From the sequence record PV660448: a stretch of DNA of 64,000 nt; one strand, written 5' to 3'. The DNA comes from Escherichia phage LF82-4. This document shows, in pieces, positions 282 through 24,300 of the stretch. Each line of letters opens with the position of its first letter. The stretch's first letter is position 1. The notes below the pieces were generated by a model. The model saw only the letters and a list, made by a program, of their open reading frames with translations. It made no database searches and was not told the origin of the DNA. Both the position numbers and the translations under genes were made by a program.

Positions 282-830
282 TTAACGAGCCCATTTGATG
301 ATTTCTGTAATCAAACCATTACGTTCGCTTGCATTAAATCCTATAACTTTGTTAGCACCATCATGATTAAGTAATTGATATGTTTGGATTTTGTTATGAA
401 TTGCAAACTCTTCAAAATGTGAAATGACTGTATTAAAACCGAATGAAGACAAAGTAATAAGGTCGTCTTCAAAACTTTCAGTCATTTCGTTACGTGTTAA
501 AATAATTGTGAACACATCATGGTTTTGGCAAAGACGAACATAGTCCTGTTCATAAACGTCAAGAACCGAGTCCGCATCTTGTCGAATACGCCCATAAACC
601 CAGTTACTAATATATCCACGGTCTAACAGATAAATCTTAGTAGGGTCTAAATAATTCAACATCGTTTCGAAACAGCCAACTTCATTTCGAGACTTAACAT
701 CGAAACGCCCATCAACTGTTCGTTTAGGGAAATCAATCTTTACATATCTTTCACTAATTTCCATTATGTCATTAATGAAAGTTGTTTTACCAGCATTATC
801 TGGGCCGTCTACTAAAATAATTTTAGCCAT
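282..830 (-). CDS. thymidylate-kinase-like P-loop kinase (occupies the locus where T4 has beta-gt)
   Basis: 182 aa; Walker A GPDNAGKTT near N-terminus and DRGY LID-like motif typical of dNMP/TMP kinases; ATG start; stop 1 nt after upstream gene. Confidence 0.6.
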   Translation of the reverse strand: MAKIILVDGPDNAGKTTFINDIMEISERYVKIDFPKRTVDGRFDVKSRNEVGCFETMLNYLDPTKIYLLDRGYISNWVYGRIRQDADSVLDVYEQDYVRLCQNHDVFTIILTRNEMTESFEDDLITLSSFGFNTVISHFEEFAIHNKIQTYQLLNHDGANKVIGFNASERNGLITEIIKWAR

Positions 831-831
831 T

Positions 832-1731
832 TTATTCCTCGATTACGACATCTTCGTATTTAGGTATATTATACGGTGAAGAAATTAAAGCATTAAAGTA
901 GATGAACTCACCAAGACCTGGATGGAATACTTCTTCAGGATTTTCGAAATATTGAATTTTCGGACGTCCTTTAAGAATTTGATAGTACTCAGTTTTAGTT
1001 GGTTTAAAAATTCGAATCAGCGCTTCTTCAGGATACTTATTTCTGTCGAAGCTATTATTTGGATCGGTTATATAAAGCGGTTGACCTAATTGAATTGCAC
1101 ATTCAACCACTTGTTCAAAACGATAACATGGGTCACTAATTCGAAATGGATGAAAAATACCATCTAGATGAATAGGAGCCAAATCACCTACAAGACGCTG
1201 CATGATGGAAGGACGTATAACTTTCTGAGTTACGATAATCTTATTACCATCTGCACCGGCGTTAACCAGCACTTCTTTTTGACGTTCATTCAACACGGTA
1301 GTTTGAAGTGAACGATTAACTGACAACATATCGGTTTTTAAGAATTCGTCAATATAAAAACGTGGTTTATTAGGGTCTGCCGTGATATTGAAATTGAATT
1401 CTACATCAAAAGCGCCGTCATATCCAGTGATATCTGTTATTAGAAAATCACAATCATAATAAGCAATTAATGAATCAACCACAAATTCATTTTCAGACCA
1501 GAAATATTTACGAGTGTTATACGCGTTATCTTTATACCATAATGGAACAAACTTAAATTCCGGGAAAAGACGTTCACATTCTTTAATATCAGATGCATTA
1601 CGTGGATATGTAATCACATCACCTGGATTAGCACGGTGCAAATGAAGTTGGAAGTTGCCATCCTTAAGGATAGCATACTGTCCAGTTTCATAAGACCGCA
1701 TACTCAAGATAGGTACGCGGAAAATAGCCAT
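832..1731 (-). CDS. hypothetical 299-aa protein; candidate DNA sugar transferase by position only
   Basis: ATG overlaps stop of gene 42 (TAATG coupling); sits between uvsX and 42 where T4 has beta-glucosyltransferase; no motif recognised by eye. Confidence 0.55.
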   Translation of the reverse strand: MAIFRVPILSMRSYETGQYAILKDGNFQLHLHRANPGDVITYPRNASDIKECERLFPEFKFVPLWYKDNAYNTRKYFWSENEFVVDSLIAYYDCDFLITDITGYDGAFDVEFNFNITADPNKPRFYIDEFLKTDMLSVNRSLQTTVLNERQKEVLVNAGADGNKIIVTQKVIRPSIMQRLVGDLAPIHLDGIFHPFRISDPCYRFEQVVECAIQLGQPLYITDPNNSFDRNKYPEEALIRIFKPTKTEYYQILKGRPKIQYFENPEEVFHPGLGEFIYFNALISSPYNIPKYEDVVIEE

Positions 1732-2447
1732 TAGTCAAGGAATCCTTTAACATAATCAAAATCACGTTCAAACACATGGGCACTTACCATGGTATGAGTA
1801 TAATCACCAACTTCTACACCACATTCGTTAGCGATATAATGAAGTAATTTTCCTTGGAGATAAAAATCCAACTGCATAACAACAGCACAGTTCTGAGAAC
1901 GCATATGACAGTGGGTATAAAGCTTACCGTCACGAATATAATAAGTCACTGAGTCAGTACATGGATATTCAAGTGTTTCGTCCGAATCAAGCAAAGCCTG
2001 ATCAGAACTTTCTAGAATTTGGAACACAACTCTTCGAGAGTTAGGTTTCTCTTTAAGTTCTTTTAGAAGAGCTGGTAATTGGGCCGCAATGCGAGGACCA
2101 TAGAAAGTGTTGAAGTTCGCCGGCAAAGCGTCTGATTTAGGTTTAGAAATAAATTTAGCGACATTAGGATATGCCTTAAACGCTTCTTCTGCATCAGTAC
2201 CACCAGAAATCATAAACTTCCAGAAGTCTTCGGCATATTCATAAGAGATGCGGTTAATACGTGGGTCGGTCATTTTGAATGATGATGGATTGTCAACAAC
2301 TACTGTCATGGACCCGATTTCATTACAACGTCCAATACGAGAATCAGTTACGAATTCAGGATTTTCTAAAATTTCACGATTGACTGCTTTAAATGCGGCT
2401 TGAAAATCTGCGGCTTTGATATATTTCATTGTGTTATGTTTTCCCAT
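1731..2447 (-). CDS. 42: dCMP hydroxymethylase (thymidylate synthase fold)
   Basis: 238 aa; TS-family pattern incl. catalytic-Cys region EYPCTDSV and RSQN...QLDFY segment; GAGGT RBS 5 nt before ATG; T4 synteny. Confidence 0.85.
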   Translation of the reverse strand: MGKHNTMKYIKAADFQAAFKAVNREILENPEFVTDSRIGRCNEIGSMTVVVDNPSSFKMTDPRINRISYEYAEDFWKFMISGGTDAEEAFKAYPNVAKFISKPKSDALPANFNTFYGPRIAAQLPALLKELKEKPNSRRVVFQILESSDQALLDSDETLEYPCTDSVTYYIRDGKLYTHCHMRSQNCAVVMQLDFYLQGKLLHYIANECGVEVGDYTHTMVSAHVFERDFDYVKGFLD

Positions 2448-2489: not shown

Positions 2490-2729
2490 TTATTTGAATT
2501 TCTTGGCAATGTTGATATAACGTAAAGCTTCAGAATCTATACTTCCAAGAACACTATGAAGGAATGCATCAGTGTAGTATTCCAATTGAACAGGTTCTTT
2601 AATCACTTTAGCCGCTTTGGTTTCAAACAGGCCCATAAGGGCCTTTTTAAGAATTTGTTCGTTAGTGTTCAGTTTTATAGTCAAAATCTCTTCATTAAGT
2701 TGGTGGTTAAAAGTTTTTCTAGAAATCAT
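2490..2729 (-). CDS. hypothetical protein (79 aa)
   Basis: ATGA overlap with upstream 386-aa gene; no TM segment so not an Imm homologue. Confidence 0.5.
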   Translation of the reverse strand: MISRKTFNHQLNEEILTIKLNTNEQILKKALMGLFETKAAKVIKEPVQLEYYTDAFLHSVLGSIDSEALRYINIAKKFK

Positions 2730-3886
2730 TCCGGGTACCTCAAAGCGTCATCAGAGTTAGTTATATCAATAATAGATATAGAGTTTTCTGATAACCCATT
2801 TTTAGATAACTGACGTTTATAATATCTTTCACAATATGTACACGTCGTCCCGCAGATTTCATTAGCACAATCGAAATCTGGATGTCTGAACCACCTTTTT
2901 TCTAAAAAACCGTCTAACAATGAGGTTTCAATATTTACTGTATGTGAAAACTCAGTCTCATTTTCAAGAGTGAAAATAGTCTCTAAAGGCTTCCACAGTT
3001 CTAACAAATTACCTTCAAACTTTTCAGAAGCGTATGCTTCAAGAACTTTCAAAATGTAGTCTGTGCTACCTGTACGTCCTGAAACTTTGAATTGAGTGAT
3101 ACCAATATCATTATAAAGTTTCAAATCTTGAGGACGAACAAAACGAGTTCTCAACCAGTTAAATGGGTCTGTATCACGAGCTTTAATGCAGTGTTGCATT
3201 GGATATCCATTTAAGGATTTAGCATCATCAGCTGTAACATCAGTACTATGGAAAATATAGCAAGAGTCACGATAACTACAATGTGTTGTATACCCTTTAC
3301 CAGCATTAGAACAGAACTCATTTACAAGAACTTCAAATATTATATTGTTCTTATTGCAAAACTCTGCTGCACGCTTCAGGAAAGAAACTGAACGGTTCTT
3401 ATGAATTCCACAGCAGACCTTTTTGATATTGTATTGGTCATGTAAGTATTTTATTTGAGTTACAGCATCGACATGTAGAATTGTTGAAACTTCAATCTCA
3501 ATGTCTTTATTGACTTCACGAACAATTTCCATAACAACAGGGTTAGCGATAGTAATACGCCATACGCCTATTGACCAAAGATACTGAACATAATCCTGAA
3601 TAGCTTTCTTCTTCCACTCGACTAGTTCTCTTTTTGAACCAGGATTTATCGTGTTGAGTGTATAGTTAAAGCAAATACCTAATTCGTTACAACGTTTAAC
3701 GTAATCTTCTAACATCTTTTTGTCAACGTCAGGAAGCCTAAAATCAGGTCTGGCTGCTACAAAAGCCATTTCTCTTGTAGAGCCATATACTTCGTTTATC
3801 AAGCTATTAGGATAGGTTTTATTGAGCTCTACGATTTTATCAAGAAGAGCTAAATCAAAATTCGTTCCGATTTTAAAAGTATTCAT
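2726..3886 (-). CDS. hypothetical 386-aa enzyme; tentative resemblance to peptidase-U32 (RlhA/TrhP/UbiU-type) family
   Basis: ATG start; TIM-barrel-like N-terminal pattern and Cys cluster FCSNAGKGYTTHCSYRDSC plus C-terminal CANEICGTTCTYC; assignment by eye only. Confidence 0.55.
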   Translation of the reverse strand: MNTFKIGTNFDLALLDKIVELNKTYPNSLINEVYGSTREMAFVAARPDFRLPDVDKKMLEDYVKRCNELGICFNYTLNTINPGSKRELVEWKKKAIQDYVQYLWSIGVWRITIANPVVMEIVREVNKDIEIEVSTILHVDAVTQIKYLHDQYNIKKVCCGIHKNRSVSFLKRAAEFCNKNNIIFEVLVNEFCSNAGKGYTTHCSYRDSCYIFHSTDVTADDAKSLNGYPMQHCIKARDTDPFNWLRTRFVRPQDLKLYNDIGITQFKVSGRTGSTDYILKVLEAYASEKFEGNLLELWKPLETIFTLENETEFSHTVNIETSLLDGFLEKRWFRHPDFDCANEICGTTCTYCERYYKRQLSKNGLSENSISIIDITNSDDALRYPE

Positions 3887-3942
3887 TTTTTTGCATCTCG
3901 CGTTAATTGATGCGATGGTTTTTGCAGGTCTTACTTAAATTA

Positions 3943-4344
3943 TTATAGATTTGGTTTATATGATTTAAATGTTTCGAATTCGCCTTTATTCATAAGAGCT
4001 TTGAATTCGTCAGGACGCATAGCTTTGTCGTCGATAATCCAATCATATACTGGTTTATGTGTTAGCAAATTATGGTACTTCAAACCAATGTTTTCCAAGT
4101 TCTGAATCAGACTTGGGAGAATGTCAATTGCTATACGACCAGGACCTACCGACTTCATACCACGGGCAGTGTAAAGCGTTATGGTATGCCCTGCATCATA
4201 CAGAGCATTAATGGCAGACACCATTTCGACGTCTGGTTTGAAGTTCACGTAATCACGATTGTTATTCCACTCTGTTATACAATCATCGACATCAAAACAA
4301 AGATTAAGCATGTTTTCTACACGGTGCATTAGATTCGTTCCCAT
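3943..4344 (-). CDS. HAD-superfamily small phosphatase (KdsC-like)
   Basis: 133 aa; HAD motif I FDVDDCIT, motif II ITLYTARG, motif IV IIDD; alternative ATG at 4329 overlaps upstream stop (TAATG). Confidence 0.6.
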   Translation of the reverse strand: MGTNLMHRVENMLNLCFDVDDCITEWNNNRDYVNFKPDVEMVSAINALYDAGHTITLYTARGMKSVGPGRIAIDILPSLIQNLENIGLKYHNLLTHKPVYDWIIDDKAMRPDEFKALMNKGEFETFKSYKPNL

Positions 4345-6014
4345 TGATGAGTGATATCGCCACCGATTGGACGATAAGAAACACCAGTTTCTTTATCAGT
4401 TAGTACCCATTTACCAGGATTTTTTGTAATCAGAGTAGCCGTTACAGGTTCTGCTACGTCATAACTAATAGAGCCGTCTTGAAGTACACGGCCCATGTTA
4501 CGTAATTGCTTAGTCAGAAGTTCCATACCTTTATAATATGCGGCTACCGCTTTAAGTGGATTATTCTTGAAATAACCACCTAATGCAATCCAGATAATTG
4601 CCACCGCCAAATGATGATACTCGTTAAACGAACTCATCTTTCCATATTTGTAAATTAATGGATTGATGTTAATAGTCACATTACAAGTTGTTTCATCAAT
4701 AGTAAACTGTCCCCAGGTCGGATTAGCATTGAATTCATCATAACCTGAAACAGCATAAAGCACTTTAGCTTCATCATACAATTTTGGCCCGTAAATCTTG
4801 GTTTCGCCAAAATATCCACGAGGGTCGATAAACTTGACTTCGCCGTTATCAGTAATCATAGTATTACTGAAGTTCGGGTCACCATGAATAACAGAGTACT
4901 GTCCCTGAGAACGATTATGATAACGAATAAGGTGTTCTAAAGCTTGTTTCAGCATTGGCTTCAGACGTCCAATCTTAGTGTAGTTCACATGTGTGATTTT
5001 ACCAAATGAATCAATCAATGGTTGAATACTTTCACAACGATCAATAACTTTCGTATAGAATTCTTTAGTGAAATCACGACGAACAGTTTCAGGACTTACA
5101 AAATACGTGTCTGTGCTGAATTTCAGTGCATCTAAAATTGCATCAACAATTTGTGGACGAGCAAGACTTGATTTGGATTTAATATATTCAAATGCCGGCT
5201 TACCTTTAATGCGTTCCATTTCAAAGTTATTTTCATTAACAGAAACTAACTGAGGAACTGAATCTGATTTCACTTTCAAATACCACGAAATCTCATCTTT
5301 CTGAAGAGCTCGTCCCTGTTCGGTTAATGCGAATTTAGTTACAGTTTCTTCACCAATTTCAACTGCATTAAAACTACGATTAAGTTCACGAACTTCATGA
5401 GCTTTTTCAAGTTTAGGCATATCACCTAAATCAATTAGATTCATAAGCTCTGATTTATTGAATGCGCCGCTGTAAAGGAATTCTACGAAATCACGTCCTT
5501 TGCAGTATTCATGAATTTCCTCATCGGTAGAACCCATATAGAATTCCCAGTCTTTGAACTGATAAATTCCTACAACATTACCACCTGTTGAACCTACGTT
5601 AGTGATATTTTCACCGTCGAAATTATACCGACATTCGTCACCCTTAACATAGATTGCGTTAACATTCCAAGACCATGAACCAAAATCAGGAATAATATCA
5701 CACCAGTTAACAATTACATTATGGCCATCTAAATCTTTGTGTAATTTAGCAAGAGCATAAGCAGAACCATACGCTTCATCAACTGTACGAATAGTCACAT
5801 TGAACCCTTCTTGCTCACAATAAGCTCGAACAGTTTCAGCAAATTTTGAATGAACTACTACAATAATTTCATCTGCGCCAAGGTCAGAATAAATTGTATA
5901 CAAATTGCTCAGAATAGTGTCTTGTTTATAGTTAACAAGCACCTTAGGAATATGATGCGTTATTGGATACAAACGAGTTGCCAGTCCAGCACCAAGAATA
6001 ACAGCTTTTTTCAT
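4329..6014 (-). CDS. bifunctional sugar-1-phosphate nucleotidylyltransferase / APH-type sugar kinase
   Basis: 561 aa; N-terminal LGAGLATRL nucleotidyltransferase signature; C-terminal HGDPNFSN and IDPRGYFG kinase motifs (aminoglycoside/choline-kinase fold); GAGGA RBS. Confidence 0.7.
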   Translation of the reverse strand: MKKAVILGAGLATRLYPITHHIPKVLVNYKQDTILSNLYTIYSDLGADEIIVVVHSKFAETVRAYCEQEGFNVTIRTVDEAYGSAYALAKLHKDLDGHNVIVNWCDIIPDFGSWSWNVNAIYVKGDECRYNFDGENITNVGSTGGNVVGIYQFKDWEFYMGSTDEEIHEYCKGRDFVEFLYSGAFNKSELMNLIDLGDMPKLEKAHEVRELNRSFNAVEIGEETVTKFALTEQGRALQKDEISWYLKVKSDSVPQLVSVNENNFEMERIKGKPAFEYIKSKSSLARPQIVDAILDALKFSTDTYFVSPETVRRDFTKEFYTKVIDRCESIQPLIDSFGKITHVNYTKIGRLKPMLKQALEHLIRYHNRSQGQYSVIHGDPNFSNTMITDNGEVKFIDPRGYFGETKIYGPKLYDEAKVLYAVSGYDEFNANPTWGQFTIDETTCNVTININPLIYKYGKMSSFNEYHHLAVAIIWIALGGYFKNNPLKAVAAYYKGMELLTKQLRNMGRVLQDGSISYDVAEPVTATLITKNPGKWVLTDKETGVSYRPIGGDITHQWERI

Positions 6015-6055: not shown

Positions 6056-6199
6056 CTAGTTAAAGCATCCATACTTTGCTTGTAGTCCAATCATAATCCA
6101 TCCGATTATAAGAGTCGGAATCATTACTGGAGCCGTTAAGCTCCAGTAGATAGTCATGACAAGCATCAATAGTAAAAGTCCTATTGTTATTGCTTTCAT
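6056..6199 (-). CDS. small hydrophobic protein (47 aa), not in ORF track
   Basis: ATG overlaps stop of the SIS gene (ATGA); MKAITIGLLLLMLVMTIYWSL... two hydrophobic segments; fills gap 6015-6195. Confidence 0.35.
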   Translation of the reverse strand: MKAITIGLLLLMLVMTIYWSLTAPVMIPTLIIGWIMIGLQAKYGCFN

Positions 6200-6831
6200 T
6201 GCTCGCCTCGTAACATGGCACCTAGTGCACCGCCTGGATGGAACTTAAGGAAATCATTAGAGGTAAATCCACGTTCAGACGAAAGGTTGATAGCAAAAGT
6301 ATCGATAAGCGCTAACAATAATGTAGTGGACATGGTCGGAGCCAGAGAATTCTCATCAACCTCTACTGCGATGCCTGTACAGAAAGAGTAATCAAAAAGG
6401 GCTTCATTTTCTTGTGGAATGTCTGGGTTACAATGCAACAGAATCTGTTTGACGTTCGGTCGAATCATTTTAAGATGCTTAGCCACGCCTATCATTTCTT
6501 CAGTTTTACCAGAACGACTAATATGAATCAACACATCATTAGGCGCAATAAATCCTGCATCACCGTGAGAATAATGCCCAGTGTTCAAGTACATACTTGG
6601 GATACCGAGTGAAGCAAATGTCTCAGAAGCTTTAGTTGCAATATTAGCATTCTTACCAACACCTGTAATAATTACTCGGCTTTCATAATTACTAAGTCCA
6701 GGGCGTCGAAGAGTTTCTAGAATAGCATTATAACGAGCAGGGTTTTGACTAATTACTTTGGCCATAGCGGCCAAAGAAGAAGCTTGTTTTATGATTGCGT
6801 CAATAGCGATATTAATAGGAGTAGTTTTCAT
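6196..6831 (-). CDS. SIS-domain sugar-phosphate isomerase (KdsD/GutQ-type arabinose-5-phosphate isomerase-like, no CBS domains)
   Basis: 211 aa; motifs GVGKNANIA, HISRSGKTEE, APTMSTT, HPGGALG characteristic of API SIS domains. Confidence 0.75.
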   Translation of the reverse strand: MKTTPINIAIDAIIKQASSLAAMAKVISQNPARYNAILETLRRPGLSNYESRVIITGVGKNANIATKASETFASLGIPSMYLNTGHYSHGDAGFIAPNDVLIHISRSGKTEEMIGVAKHLKMIRPNVKQILLHCNPDIPQENEALFDYSFCTGIAVEVDENSLAPTMSTTLLLALIDTFAINLSSERGFTSNDFLKFHPGGALGAMLRGEQ

Positions 6832-21912: not shown

Positions 21913-22023
21913 TTAATTAATTAACCAAGCGTTGATAAGCAAACCATATTGCGAATAAAATTCTGGGCCAAAATGAAAAATCATATCATTTATAGTATCC
22001 ATAATATAATTCAATTTAATCAT
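21913..22023 (-). CDS. small hypothetical protein (36 aa)
   Basis: ATG at 22023, 2 nt after nrdG stop; longer track ORF overlaps nrdG by 119 nt. Confidence 0.3.
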   Translation of the reverse strand: MIKLNYIMDTINDMIFHFGPEFYSQYGLLINAWLIN

Positions 22024-22486
22024 GTTTCCACACCCCATCGGTATTTGACCAAAGTCGCTGATTATCTGATCCTCGCCACAGCTTTTTGGTCGGAAGATTT
22101 TTCTCATACTTCCCATCAATAATAACATCAACATATTTAAGCATTTTTAGTTGTTTAATATCTTCAAACTTATATCCTGTCCACAACCAAATGCTTTTAT
22201 TGGGATAAAGATTTTTAATAGTTTGAACCACAGAGTGAATCACATCTCGGTTATCAGGATAGAGAGGGTCACCTCCGGTTATAGTCAATCCTTCTATATA
22301 ATCATTATTCAAACATTCAATTAATTGTTCTAGTGTTTCACCAGTGAATGGAATACCATTTCTAGCATTCCATGTTGATTTATTATAACACCCTTCGCAT
22401 TTATGCAAACAACCTGTGACGAAAAGAACGACCCTACAACCAGGGCCATTCACAAAATCGCAAGGATAAAATCTATCATAATTCAT
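22016..22486 (-). CDS. nrdG: anaerobic ribonucleotide reductase activating protein (radical SAM)
   Basis: 156 aa; Cys cluster CLHKCEGCYN; 4-nt overlap with nrdD. Confidence 0.9.
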   Translation of the reverse strand: MNYDRFYPCDFVNGPGCRVVLFVTGCLHKCEGCYNKSTWNARNGIPFTGETLEQLIECLNNDYIEGLTITGGDPLYPDNRDVIHSVVQTIKNLYPNKSIWLWTGYKFEDIKQLKMLKYVDVIIDGKYEKNLPTKKLWRGSDNQRLWSNTDGVWKHD

Positions 22487-24300
22487 TGGTGTTTAACCCT
22501 ATGCATGATTTCTTTATTTTTGCCGAGATTAAATCCACGTTCGTTCGGGTTCCCCAAATAACCGCACGTTCTTCTTATGGTGTTCATCTTTTTAGGATCA
22601 GTTTCTCCACAAACTGAACAAACAAATCCATTTTCAGTAGGAGTCATCTCATGGGTACTTCCACACGTAAAACATTTATCTACTGGCATGTTAACACCAA
22701 AATAATCTAAATGTTGTGCAGCATAATCCCACACGGCCTCAAGACCTTTTAAGTTATTTTTCATATCAGGAAGTTCAACATAAGAAATGTGACCACCTGT
22801 CGCAATGAAATGATATGGCGCTTCACGAGAAATCTTTTCAAACGGAGTAATATTTTCTTCTACTGAAACATGGAAACTATTAGTGTACCAGCCTTTATCA
22901 GTAACATCCTTTACACTTCCATATTTTTCTGTATCAAGTTTACAGAAGCGATAACAAAGGTTTTCAGCAGGAGTAGAATACAAGCTAAAAGCAAATCCGG
23001 TTCTTTCAGTCCACTGTTTAAGACGAGCATTCATTTTAGTTAAAATTTCTTGCCCAATATCACGACCGACAAGAATATTCAATTCGTGAATACCAATGTA
23101 TCCTAAAGACACTGAACTTCTACCGTTTTTAAATAACTCAATTATGTCGTCATCAGGTTTAAGACGAACCCCGAATGCACCTTCTTGGTAAAGAATAGGA
23201 GCAACAGTCGCTTTAACACCCTTTAAAGAACTAATTCTACACATCAAGGCTTCAAAACACAGATCCATTCGTTCATTAAATAATTCGATAAATTTCTGTT
23301 CATTGAACTGTGTTCCAATATAAGAATCTAATGCGATACGAGGAAGATTCAGTGTTACAACACCAAGATTATTACGTCCATCAAGAATTTCATTACCAGT
23401 CGAATCTTTCCATACGCTCAAGAAACTACGGCAGCCCATTGGAGAAACTGGAACTGAAGAACCGGTAATAGCTTTATTATTCTTAACAGAAATAATGTCA
23501 GGATACATTCTTTTGCTTGCACATTCTAACGCAAGTTGTTTAATATCATAGTTCGGATCATCTTTATAAAGATTAACACCTTCTTCAACAAACATAACAA
23601 GTTTAGGAAAAATAGGAGTTATTCCATCACGACCAAGACCTTTAATCCGATTTTTCAGAATTGCCTTCTGAATCATTCGTTCAGTCCAATCGGTTCCCGT
23701 ACCAAATGTAATTGTTACAAAAGGCGTTTGTCCGTTTGAACTAAAGAGAGTATTTACTTCATATTCATAAGCTTGGAACGCATCGTATACGTCTTTTTCT
23801 GTTTTAGATTGGGCATAATTCAACGCATCAGCGATTTGCCATTTTTCTGCATCCTCAATATGTTTTGCATAGGTGCGTTTAACATAAGGAGAAAGAACTT
23901 TATCGACATTCGCAAATGTAGTTCCGCCATACTGATGTGAAGCAACTTGTGCAGTAATTTGTGCCATAATTGCAGTAGCAACACCAATCGATTTAGGCGT
24001 TTCAATTTGAGCATTGCCTAATTTAAATCCATTCTCAAGCATCCCCTTTAAATCGACTAAACAGCAATTAGTAAATGGAAGAGCAGGAGAATAATCAATA
24101 TCATGCATATGAATGATTCCGCTTTCATGCGCATTCATAATAAAAGACGGGACCATATTTTTGGCAATGTGCTTAGACACAATACCAGCCATAAGGTCCC
24201 GTTGAGTTGGAAAAACACGAGAATCTTTATTAGCATTCTCGTTCAAAAGATCTTTATTAGTTTTATAAATTAATCCTTCAATTTCTTTTTCAATTTTCAT
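22483..24300 (-). CDS. nrdD: anaerobic ribonucleoside-triphosphate reductase (glycyl radical enzyme), uninterrupted
   Basis: 605 aa; C-terminal glycyl-radical motif RRTCGYLG and Zn-ribbon CFTCGS...CSVCG; single continuous ORF (no intron). Confidence 0.95.
   Translation of the reverse strand: MKIEKEIEGLIYKTNKDLLNENANKDSRVFPTQRDLMAGIVSKHIAKNMVPSFIMNAHESGIIHMHDIDYSPALPFTNCCLVDLKGMLENGFKLGNAQIETPKSIGVATAIMAQITAQVASHQYGGTTFANVDKVLSPYVKRTYAKHIEDAEKWQIADALNYAQSKTEKDVYDAFQAYEYEVNTLFSSNGQTPFVTITFGTGTDWTERMIQKAILKNRIKGLGRDGITPIFPKLVMFVEEGVNLYKDDPNYDIKQLALECASKRMYPDIISVKNNKAITGSSVPVSPMGCRSFLSVWKDSTGNEILDGRNNLGVVTLNLPRIALDSYIGTQFNEQKFIELFNERMDLCFEALMCRISSLKGVKATVAPILYQEGAFGVRLKPDDDIIELFKNGRSSVSLGYIGIHELNILVGRDIGQEILTKMNARLKQWTERTGFAFSLYSTPAENLCYRFCKLDTEKYGSVKDVTDKGWYTNSFHVSVEENITPFEKISREAPYHFIATGGHISYVELPDMKNNLKGLEAVWDYAAQHLDYFGVNMPVDKCFTCGSTHEMTPTENGFVCSVCGETDPKKMNTIRRTCGYLGNPNERGFNLGKNKEIMHRVKHQ

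Follow-up and report, generated by a model that had tools for sequence, protein, structure and literature searches.

A divergent, phage-specific U32 subfamily as a candidate oxygen-independent hydroxylase in the 5-hydroxycytosine operon of a T4-like phage

The 5-hydroxycytosine (5hoC) pathway of RB69-like phages rests on a flavoenzyme that requires O2, yet these phages inhabit a gut that is mostly anoxic and encode an anaerobic ribonucleotide reductase. The means by which cytosine could be fully replaced without O2 is a gap, for which a gene in the modification operon of Escherichia phage LF82-4 offers a concrete candidate answer. The gene encodes a peptidase U32-family protein of 386 aa with an ATG start (2726..3886, minus strand) and is the ortholog of RB69p050. 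All coordinates refer to the window, the 64,000-nt stretch of sequence record PV660448 that we analyzed. The window belongs to a T4-like phage, and the 6.8-kb stretch around the U32 gene shares 97.9% DNA identity with RB69 and 99.5% with the LF82-series Mosigviruses. It also encodes the anaerobic ribonucleotide reductase NrdD and its radical-SAM activase NrdG (Table 1); the phage is therefore equipped to make deoxynucleoside triphosphates and to replicate without O2, which sharpens the question of where its 5hoC comes from under such conditions. Comparison of sequences, structure models and gene neighborhoods leads us to propose that the U32 protein is probably a prephenate-dependent, iron-sulfur (Fe-S), O2-independent 5-hydroxylase of deoxycytidine monophosphate (dCMP), which would serve as an anoxic backup of the O2-dependent enzyme.

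RB69 DNA carries mono- and di-arabinosyl-5-hydroxycytosine and not arabinosyl-5-hydroxymethylcytosine (hmC) (PMC13326640), so that the product of the operon is arabinosyl-5hoC and the hmC assumed in the original prediction is not supported. Cytosine is fully replaced in RB69 by a pre-replicative route via a deoxynucleoside monophosphate (dNMP) kinase, and 5-hydroxy-dCMP comes from the thymidylate synthase (TS) homolog gp48, a flavin-binding protein that draws its oxygen from O2, as 18O labeling showed; TS homologs of this synthase type carry a D169N signature (PMC13326640). RB69p050 appears in that work in Table 1 only, as a 'sugar or heterocycle reductase' named from a match to the structure 5d88 (PMC13326640, Lee et al. 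2026). Its discussion points out that the RlhA and TrhP/TrhO routes use no homologs of the 5-hydroxy-dCMP (5hodCMP) synthase, and gp50 is not connected with them (PMC13326640). In the literature that we searched, no paper ties phage DNA modification to U32, RlhA or chorismate mutase.

The phage protein matches the Pfam Peptidase_U32 model (PF01136) over aa 94-286 with an E value of 7.3e-11 and 42.2 bits against a gathering cut-off of 22.4. Profile-profile comparison by hhalign with RlhA, TrhP and UbiU, for which the four Escherichia coli U32 paralogs were extracted from MG1655 as the reference set, gave 94% probability (E 1.3e-7, 273 columns). The AlphaFold2 model (predicted local distance difference test 90.7, predicted template modeling score 0.89) alternates strands and helices in a U32-type TIM-barrel catalytic domain. 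Its best structural match in the PDB is Mk0906 (5d88), the U32 catalytic domain from Methanopyrus kandleri, which is 14% identical and lacks the Cys-rich C-terminal extension of about 100 aa found in the phage protein. Searched against PDB sequences, neither the protein by itself nor a profile built from 33 sequences brought up anything but a chance match to BIM1. The original prediction had placed a 386-aa reading frame in a modification operon and had read into it U32 features of the hydroxylase type, a TIM-barrel-like pattern, a Cys cluster FCSNAGKGYTTHCSYRDSC and a C-terminal four-Cys motif CANEICGTTCTYC. The reading frame stands, between the HAD phosphatase and TS-like genes; the two motifs occur at aa 191-209 and 340-352, respectively; and the hydroxylase-type reading is now supported by family match, fold and motif residues.

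Nine Cys residues (C158, C192, C203, C209, C233, C340, C345, C349 and C352) are invariant in 120 homologs, and eight of them fall into two sets of four within a single polypeptide. In 129 cluster representatives at greater distance, conservation is about 100% for C192, C203 and C233 and 93-95% for C340, C345, C349 and C352; C209, present in 100% of the close homologs, is found in 59% of the distant ones, where it is possibly misaligned. The conserved core of these representatives further includes R46, N78, S134, N164, R165, K267, R271 and Y285. In the hhalign alignment, E190, C203, C209 and C233 are paired with E161, C169, C176 and C196 of RlhA, and FKVSGR with FKIEGR. C169 and C176 are essential in RlhA, E161A is nearly inactive, and the C-terminal Cys residues are also essential (PMC5727448). 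The signature Glu and Cys pair of the U32 hydroxylases is present in the phage protein in a divergent form, E-x12-C-x5-C-Y-x2-H, with five residues inserted ahead of the first Cys and C-x5-C spacing in place of the canonical C-x6-C. Of the canonical C-x6-C-x15-C-x3-C pattern, three positions align (C203, C209 and C233) and the third canonical Cys has no partner; the invariant C192 may stand in for it, by analogy with the non-canonical Cys of UbiU/UbiV. Each of the two sets is a predicted Fe-S site. C345-x3-C349-x2-C352 also resembles the CxxxCxxC motif of radical SAM enzymes, but it sits C-terminally, the protein has no Radical_SAM Pfam match, and no radical SAM structure is among the structural matches listed, so we discarded this assignment. 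Purifying selection on the gene is strong, with a ratio of nonsynonymous to synonymous substitution rates (dN/dS) of 0.03-0.07 against the orthologs of Serratia phage LC53 and Yersinia phage TG1, at saturated dS.

The phage protein is a genuine U32 member but belongs to a separate, compact, phage-specific and very divergent subfamily, because NCBIfam returned only UbiU below threshold (18.5 bits against a cut-off of 440) and no RlhA, TrhP, UbiU or UbiV equivalog, because identity to canonical members is about 19%, and because a subfamily profile searched against 1.84 billion cluster representatives brought up no more than 1670, of which 455 reached E 1e-30 or better.

The U32 enzymes that act on nucleic acids are pyrimidine C5 hydroxylases: RlhA makes 5-hydroxycytidine (ho5C) and TrhP 5-hydroxyuridine (ho5U), in RNA (RlhA: PMC5727448). 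Both are O2-independent and prephenate-dependent, and 18O labeling has proven prephenate to be the oxygen donor of UbiU/UbiV (PMC10990095). With RlhA (YdcP, the 5-hydroxylase of C2501 in E. coli 23S rRNA), itself dependent on prephenate and Fe-S, the phage protein shares the family, the aligned E190/C203/C209, the predicted hydroxylation of cytosine at C5 and an extra C-terminal Cys group, the last a likeness by analogy whose homology is not established. RlhA, however, has 653 aa with a DUF3656 domain and acts on pre-50S rRNA, whereas the phage protein has 386 aa, no DUF3656 in the Pfam scan, a C-terminal C-x4-C-x3-C-x2-C motif and a predicted deoxynucleotide substrate.

The proposed division of labor has precedents in E. 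coli. At U34 of tRNA, the O2-independent U32 enzyme TrhP stands beside the unrelated, O2-dependent TrhO, which makes the same product, as we propose for the phage pair; unlike in the phage, the substrate is a tRNA uridine, the O2-dependent partner is a rhodanese and not a TS homolog, and the redundancy, shown genetically for TrhP/TrhO, is predicted for the phage enzymes. UbiU/UbiV (with UbiT) are Fe-S U32 enzymes that act on a small molecule with prephenate as the donor and are the anaerobic counterparts of flavin monooxygenases, all of which we predict for the phage protein; the pairing of UbiU,V with UbiI,H,F parallels the anoxic/oxic pairing suggested here. Their substrate is a lipid, and they reportedly form a heterodimer with one [4Fe-4S] cluster per subunit (PMC10990095; Pelosi et al. 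2019), whereas the phage protein carries two conserved Cys sets on one chain. We propose that its aerobic counterpart is the TS-like 5-hydroxy-dCMP synthase (RB69 gp48, DLP3 gp80), encoded in the same operon and making the product predicted for the U32 enzyme. That synthase differs in its thymidylate synthase fold, its flavin cofactor and the O2 origin of its oxygen, and its activity is experimental where that of the U32 protein is predicted.

Chorismate mutase produces prephenate, and 3-deoxy-D-arabino-heptulosonate-7-phosphate (DAHP) synthase feeds the same shikimate pathway. We inspected 8 kb on either side of the U32 gene at 62 loci encoding the subfamily; the loci came from phage genomes with annotation, from IMG/VR and metagenome contigs, and from GTDB genomes. 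At 30 of them the U32 gene has a chorismate mutase gene on its own strand no more than 2.2 kb away, mostly abutting or overlapping it, and Pfam CM_2 confirmed representative proteins with E values of 1e-9 to 5e-20. The linkage takes at least three architectures. In Kanagawavirus, Winklervirus and other Straboviridae, a short stand-alone chorismate mutase of 78-132 aa lies between the U32 and TS genes; in jumbo-phage contigs, one of about 107-151 aa follows directly downstream of U32; and in other contigs a fusion of DAHP synthase with chorismate mutase lies just upstream of U32, with DAHP synthase alone at one locus (Table 1). The DAHP synthase and chorismate mutase genes of the viral and metagenome-assembled genome (MAG) contigs have the appearance of auxiliary metabolic genes, which would direct more of the shikimate pathway to prephenate. 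This recurrent linkage is the strongest single, if indirect, argument for prephenate as the donor of the phage U32 enzyme. At one prephenate for each cytosine, about 62,000 molecules would be needed per genome (37% GC in the window, about 168 kb), a cost that would account for the chorismate mutase and DAHP synthase genes of other lineages.

Outside Straboviridae, the U32 gene occurs in DNA-glycosylation clusters on viral contigs and contigs of anaerobe MAGs, such as glycosyltransferase / arabinose-5-phosphate isomerase / AfhE-like / DAHP synthase-chorismate mutase / HAD / U32, or MazG-like / kinase / glycosyltransferase / U32 / PolIII-alpha. A hidden Markov model of the TS-like hydroxylase matched in Straboviridae loci only, with none within 8 kb of U32 elsewhere. 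A distant T4-like contig (L042, 216-12163) encodes a family B polymerase, a RecA/UvsX-like protein, a helicase and a gp32-like protein, and its modification cluster between pol and uvsX comprises HAD, two glycosyltransferases, arabinose-5-phosphate isomerase, AfhE-like and U32 genes and no TS-like gene; its gene content suggests that U32 has naturally taken the place of the flavin hydroxylase there. Cellular genomes contain the subfamily at only 11 loci among 185,579 GTDB species genomes. Most of these are anaerobe MAG contigs (Erysipelotrichales, Oscillospiraceae, Gastranaerophilaceae, Romboutsia, Tannerella, Phocaeicola), and several share their architectures with viral contigs.

Within the arabinosyl-5hoC Straboviridae, the AfhE-like gene is found in 368 phage records, 57 of them from Acinetobacter phages, and the U32 gene in 221, with at least 80% identity throughout. 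The hosts named for these 221 records (Escherichia, Shigella, Klebsiella, Enterobacter, Serratia, Yersinia, Proteus, Providencia, Edwardsiella, Pectobacterium and Shewanella) are facultative anaerobes. In Acinetobacter phage Tonic and Pseudomonas phage PspYZU05, whose hosts are aerobes, the HAD gene is followed directly by the TS gene and U32 is absent. This HAD-TS junction is matched by 57 Acinetobacter records and held uninterrupted by 63 records, which were counted and not named; U32-positive phages match it in two separated places.

In the mechanism that we propose, the U32 Fe-S enzyme would hydroxylate C5 of cytosine without O2, most likely converting dCMP into 5-hydroxy-dCMP, with the hydroxyl group taken from prephenate, which would yield phenylpyruvate and CO2 as proposed for UbiU/UbiV, TrhP and RlhA. 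A mononucleotide substrate is suggested by the compactness of the protein, the logic of the pre-replicative pathway and the MazG and kinase neighbors at other loci. The 5-hydroxy-dCMP would then join the route of the TS-like enzyme, passing through the dNMP kinase and the polymerase to arabinosylation on DNA. With both hydroxylases, the phage would use the TS-like enzyme in oxic hosts and the U32 enzyme in anoxic hosts.

Several observations weigh against this proposal. Its support is comparative throughout, and as of 2024 no U32 enzyme had been reconstituted in vitro (PMC10990095). gp48 and the dNMP kinase (RB69 gp159) suffice for 5-hydroxydeoxycytidine (5hodC) in aerobic E. coli DNA (PMC13326640). 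The U32 gene is dispensable for aerobic 5hoC synthesis and absent in some enterobacterial relatives; in Dhakaviruses of E. coli, WG01 among them, the pathway is present but this gene is not, which also rules out a strict rule that a facultative-anaerobe host implies the presence of U32. The subfamily is remote from canonical U32 proteins in identity, in its C-x5-C spacing and in its unaligned third canonical Cys, and the profile that retrieved the 1670 representatives did not reach them. There is no chorismate mutase anywhere in the window, and the phage would therefore rely on host PheA/TyrA for prephenate. Finally, on anaerobe-phage contigs a TS-like gene could lie outside the 8-kb flanks, and one locus (L025) has a canonical ThyA 4.6 kb from U32.

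The alternatives concern either the substrate or the chemistry. The same reaction might be directed at cytosine in DNA after replication, or at dCTP, CMP or dUMP. RlhA and TrhP do act on polymers, and some homologs lie beside dCMP deaminase or dUTPase genes, so that uracil substrates are possible in other phages; we nevertheless consider another substrate rather unlikely, as the protein is devoid of the extra domains of RlhA and TrhP (453 aa), RB69 cytosine is completely replaced before replication through the dNMP kinase, and the MazG-like and kinase clusters fit a mononucleotide route. Hydroxylation of host or phage RNA (tRNA U34 or a C2501-like position in rRNA) to tune translation during infection would agree with the characterized nucleic-acid U32 enzymes being RNA hydroxylases. 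It is quite improbable, however, for a protein with no RNA-binding extension whose gene sits among glycosyltransferase and nucleoside diphosphate-sugar genes in the DNA-modification clusters of many unrelated phage lineages, and E. coli already has RlhA and TrhP.

A role in the sugar branch, such as the reductase of Lee et al. 2026, would suit the position of the gene between sugar-activation and base-modification genes and the published label, which came from structure matches alone (PMC13326640). We regard it as improbable, since Acinetobacter phage DLP3 produces the same mono- and di-arabinosyl-5hoC ions as RB69 without a U32 gene and since it would leave the linkage to chorismate mutase and DAHP synthase without explanation. 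We also know of no U32 member that is a reductase. That the protein is a genuine peptidase or collagenase, the name given in most database records, follows from annotation only (phrog_5757 'peptidase'; GenBank 'peptidase' or 'collagenase-like protease') and is hardly credible: the family name is historical and no protease mechanism is known for the family (PMC5727448), the gene context is nucleotide and sugar metabolism, and the conserved residues are Cys, Arg and Lys, not a protease catalytic set. The glycosyltransferase suggested as an alternative in the original prediction had nothing more in its favor than the lack of a Pfam glycosyltransferase match in the operon. We rejected it as having next to no chance of being correct, because the protein is a U32-type TIM barrel with no glycosyltransferase Pfam match and no GT-A or GT-B fold among the structural matches listed, and because its 299-aa neighbor and RB69 gp3 are predicted arabinosyltransferases, the DLP3 homologs of which have been assayed in vitro (PMC13326640). 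The prephenate-dependent dCMP hydroxylase thus remains our preferred reading.

The U32 gene lies within the operon with the HAD phosphatase gene on one side and the TS-like gene beyond the other, all its operon neighbors being on one strand. The gene order is DNA polymerase, SIS isomerase, nucleotidyltransferase-kinase, HAD, U32, 79-aa open reading frame (ORF), TS homolog, 299-aa transferase and thymidylate-kinase-like gene (Table 1). The transferase and the nucleotidyltransferase-kinase are each one intact ORF in the window; in the RB69 reference record both genes are split (gp46:47 and gp52:53), which has been ascribed to sequencing errors (PMC13326640). About 55 nt upstream of the U32 start, a sigma-70-like site (3942..3969, minus strand; TTTAAA, 16 nt, TATAAT, 10/12 matches) spans the end of the HAD gene and the intergenic spacer; sigma-70-like sites in the window were not above the count in shuffled sequence.

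Table 1. Positions of the U32 gene, its motifs and related genes in the window, and of recurrent gene contexts at comparison loci (L numbers)
Feature	Position	Strand	Basis
U32-family protein, 386 aa; predicted prephenate-dependent, O2-independent pyrimidine C5-hydroxylase	2726..3886	-	RB69p050 ortholog
Pfam Peptidase_U32 match, aa 94-286	3029..3607	-	Pfam model
First Cys set, aa 192-233 (C192, C203, C209, C233), preceded by E190; predicted [4Fe-4S] site	3188..3313	-	Conservation, RlhA alignment and mutagenesis (PMC5727448)
C340-x4-C345-x3-C349-x2-C352; predicted second metal or Fe-S site	2831..2869	-	Conservation
79-aa ORF, family phrog_8601	2490..2729	-	ORF call, PHROG assignment
TS homolog, RB69 gp48 ortholog; 5-hydroxy-dCMP synthase, O2- and flavin-dependent	1731..2447	-	Pfam, identity to RB69, PMC13326640
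Predicted DNA arabinosyltransferase 1, 299 aa; RB69 gp46:47 ortholog, intact	832..1731	-	PMC13326640
Thymidylate-kinase-like nucleotide kinase; RB69p045 ortholog	282..830	-	Pfam, annotation
HAD-type phosphatase, AfhF-like; RB69 gp51 ortholog	3943..4344	-	Annotation, comparison with PMC13326640
Bifunctional nucleotidyltransferase and kinase, AfhE-like, 561 aa; RB69 gp52:53 ortholog, intact	4329..6014	-	Pfam
SIS-domain arabinose-5-phosphate isomerase; RB69 gp55 ortholog	6196..6831	-	Pfam, annotation
NrdG, radical-SAM activase	22016..22486	-	
NrdD, anaerobic ribonucleotide reductase	22483..24300	-	Pfam, E 1.5e-171
DAHP synthase with C-terminal chorismate mutase beside U32	L034 6411-7433; L036; L037; L038; L048 9079-10197; L063 6931-7959		
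DAHP synthase alone beside U32	L023 9080-9826		
GP88-methyltransferase-U32 context	L002 5135-9098; L061; L067-L070 (L070 = Phocaeicola faecalis isolate genome)		

The start of the 79-aa ORF overlaps the U32 stop by 4 nt (ATGA) and has a GAGG 8 nt upstream, from which the ORF is predicted to be translationally coupled to U32. It fills the slot next to which other genera carry chorismate mutase. We considered that it might be a diverged chorismate mutase and rejected the idea, as it had no CM_2 match at E values up to 10 and an hhalign probability of 16%, and as it co-occurs with a separate chorismate mutase at four loci (L011, L016, L018 and L024; Yersinia TG1-type and others). PADLOC gave no match for it or for the U32 protein. 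Its database homologs are all Mosigvirus-like and close to each other, and many are shortened to 47-58 aa; it may be a partner of U32 or a decaying gene. The 114-aa chorismate mutase of Serratia phage LC53 (L008, 6158-6502) has an N terminus, MRRINHTMNEL, that resembles KINHKLNEEL of the 79-aa ORF family, a likeness that suggests a past fusion or deletion joining two small genes.

Two further contexts differ from that of the window. The cluster of Escherichia phage WG01 (L058) has no U32/chorismate mutase module and no annotated arabinose-5-phosphate isomerase; the phage presumably relies on KdsD/GutQ of its host and requires O2 to hydroxylate. A second recurrent context of U32 has the order GP88 (PF17338) / S-adenosylmethionine methyltransferase of about 414-443 aa / 265-aa protein with no Pfam match / U32, and its gene content may represent a hydroxylate-then-methylate nucleobase pathway. 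At one such locus (L002), the genes beyond U32 encode NT5C, a nicotinamide mononucleotide transporter, a deoxynucleoside kinase, a radical SAM/SPASM protein, a second divergent U32 and a nucleoside 2-deoxyribosyltransferase-like protein.

The U32 enzyme kind and the 5hoC pathway were known; a phage-specific U32 subfamily with a specific proposed role, backed by comparative evidence, is new. It is an even call, in our judgment, that this subfamily represents the first prephenate-dependent hydroxylase acting on a DNA precursor and forms, together with phage chorismate mutase and DAHP synthase, an O2-independent route to glycosylated 5-hydroxypyrimidine DNA, being the sole hydroxylase in phages of strict anaerobes and an anoxic twin in T4-like phages. 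If so, prephenate-dependent hydroxylation would extend from RNA and quinones to DNA precursors, and phages would have a reason for carrying chorismate mutase and DAHP synthase genes. A soluble, single-chain U32 enzyme with a nucleotide substrate could also permit the first in vitro reconstitution of a U32 enzyme. Phages of gut anaerobes would then hold a large unexplored set of glycosylated 5-hydroxypyrimidine DNAs. The proposed role is also relevant to phage therapy and to studies of defense systems that hinge on the modification state under anoxia.

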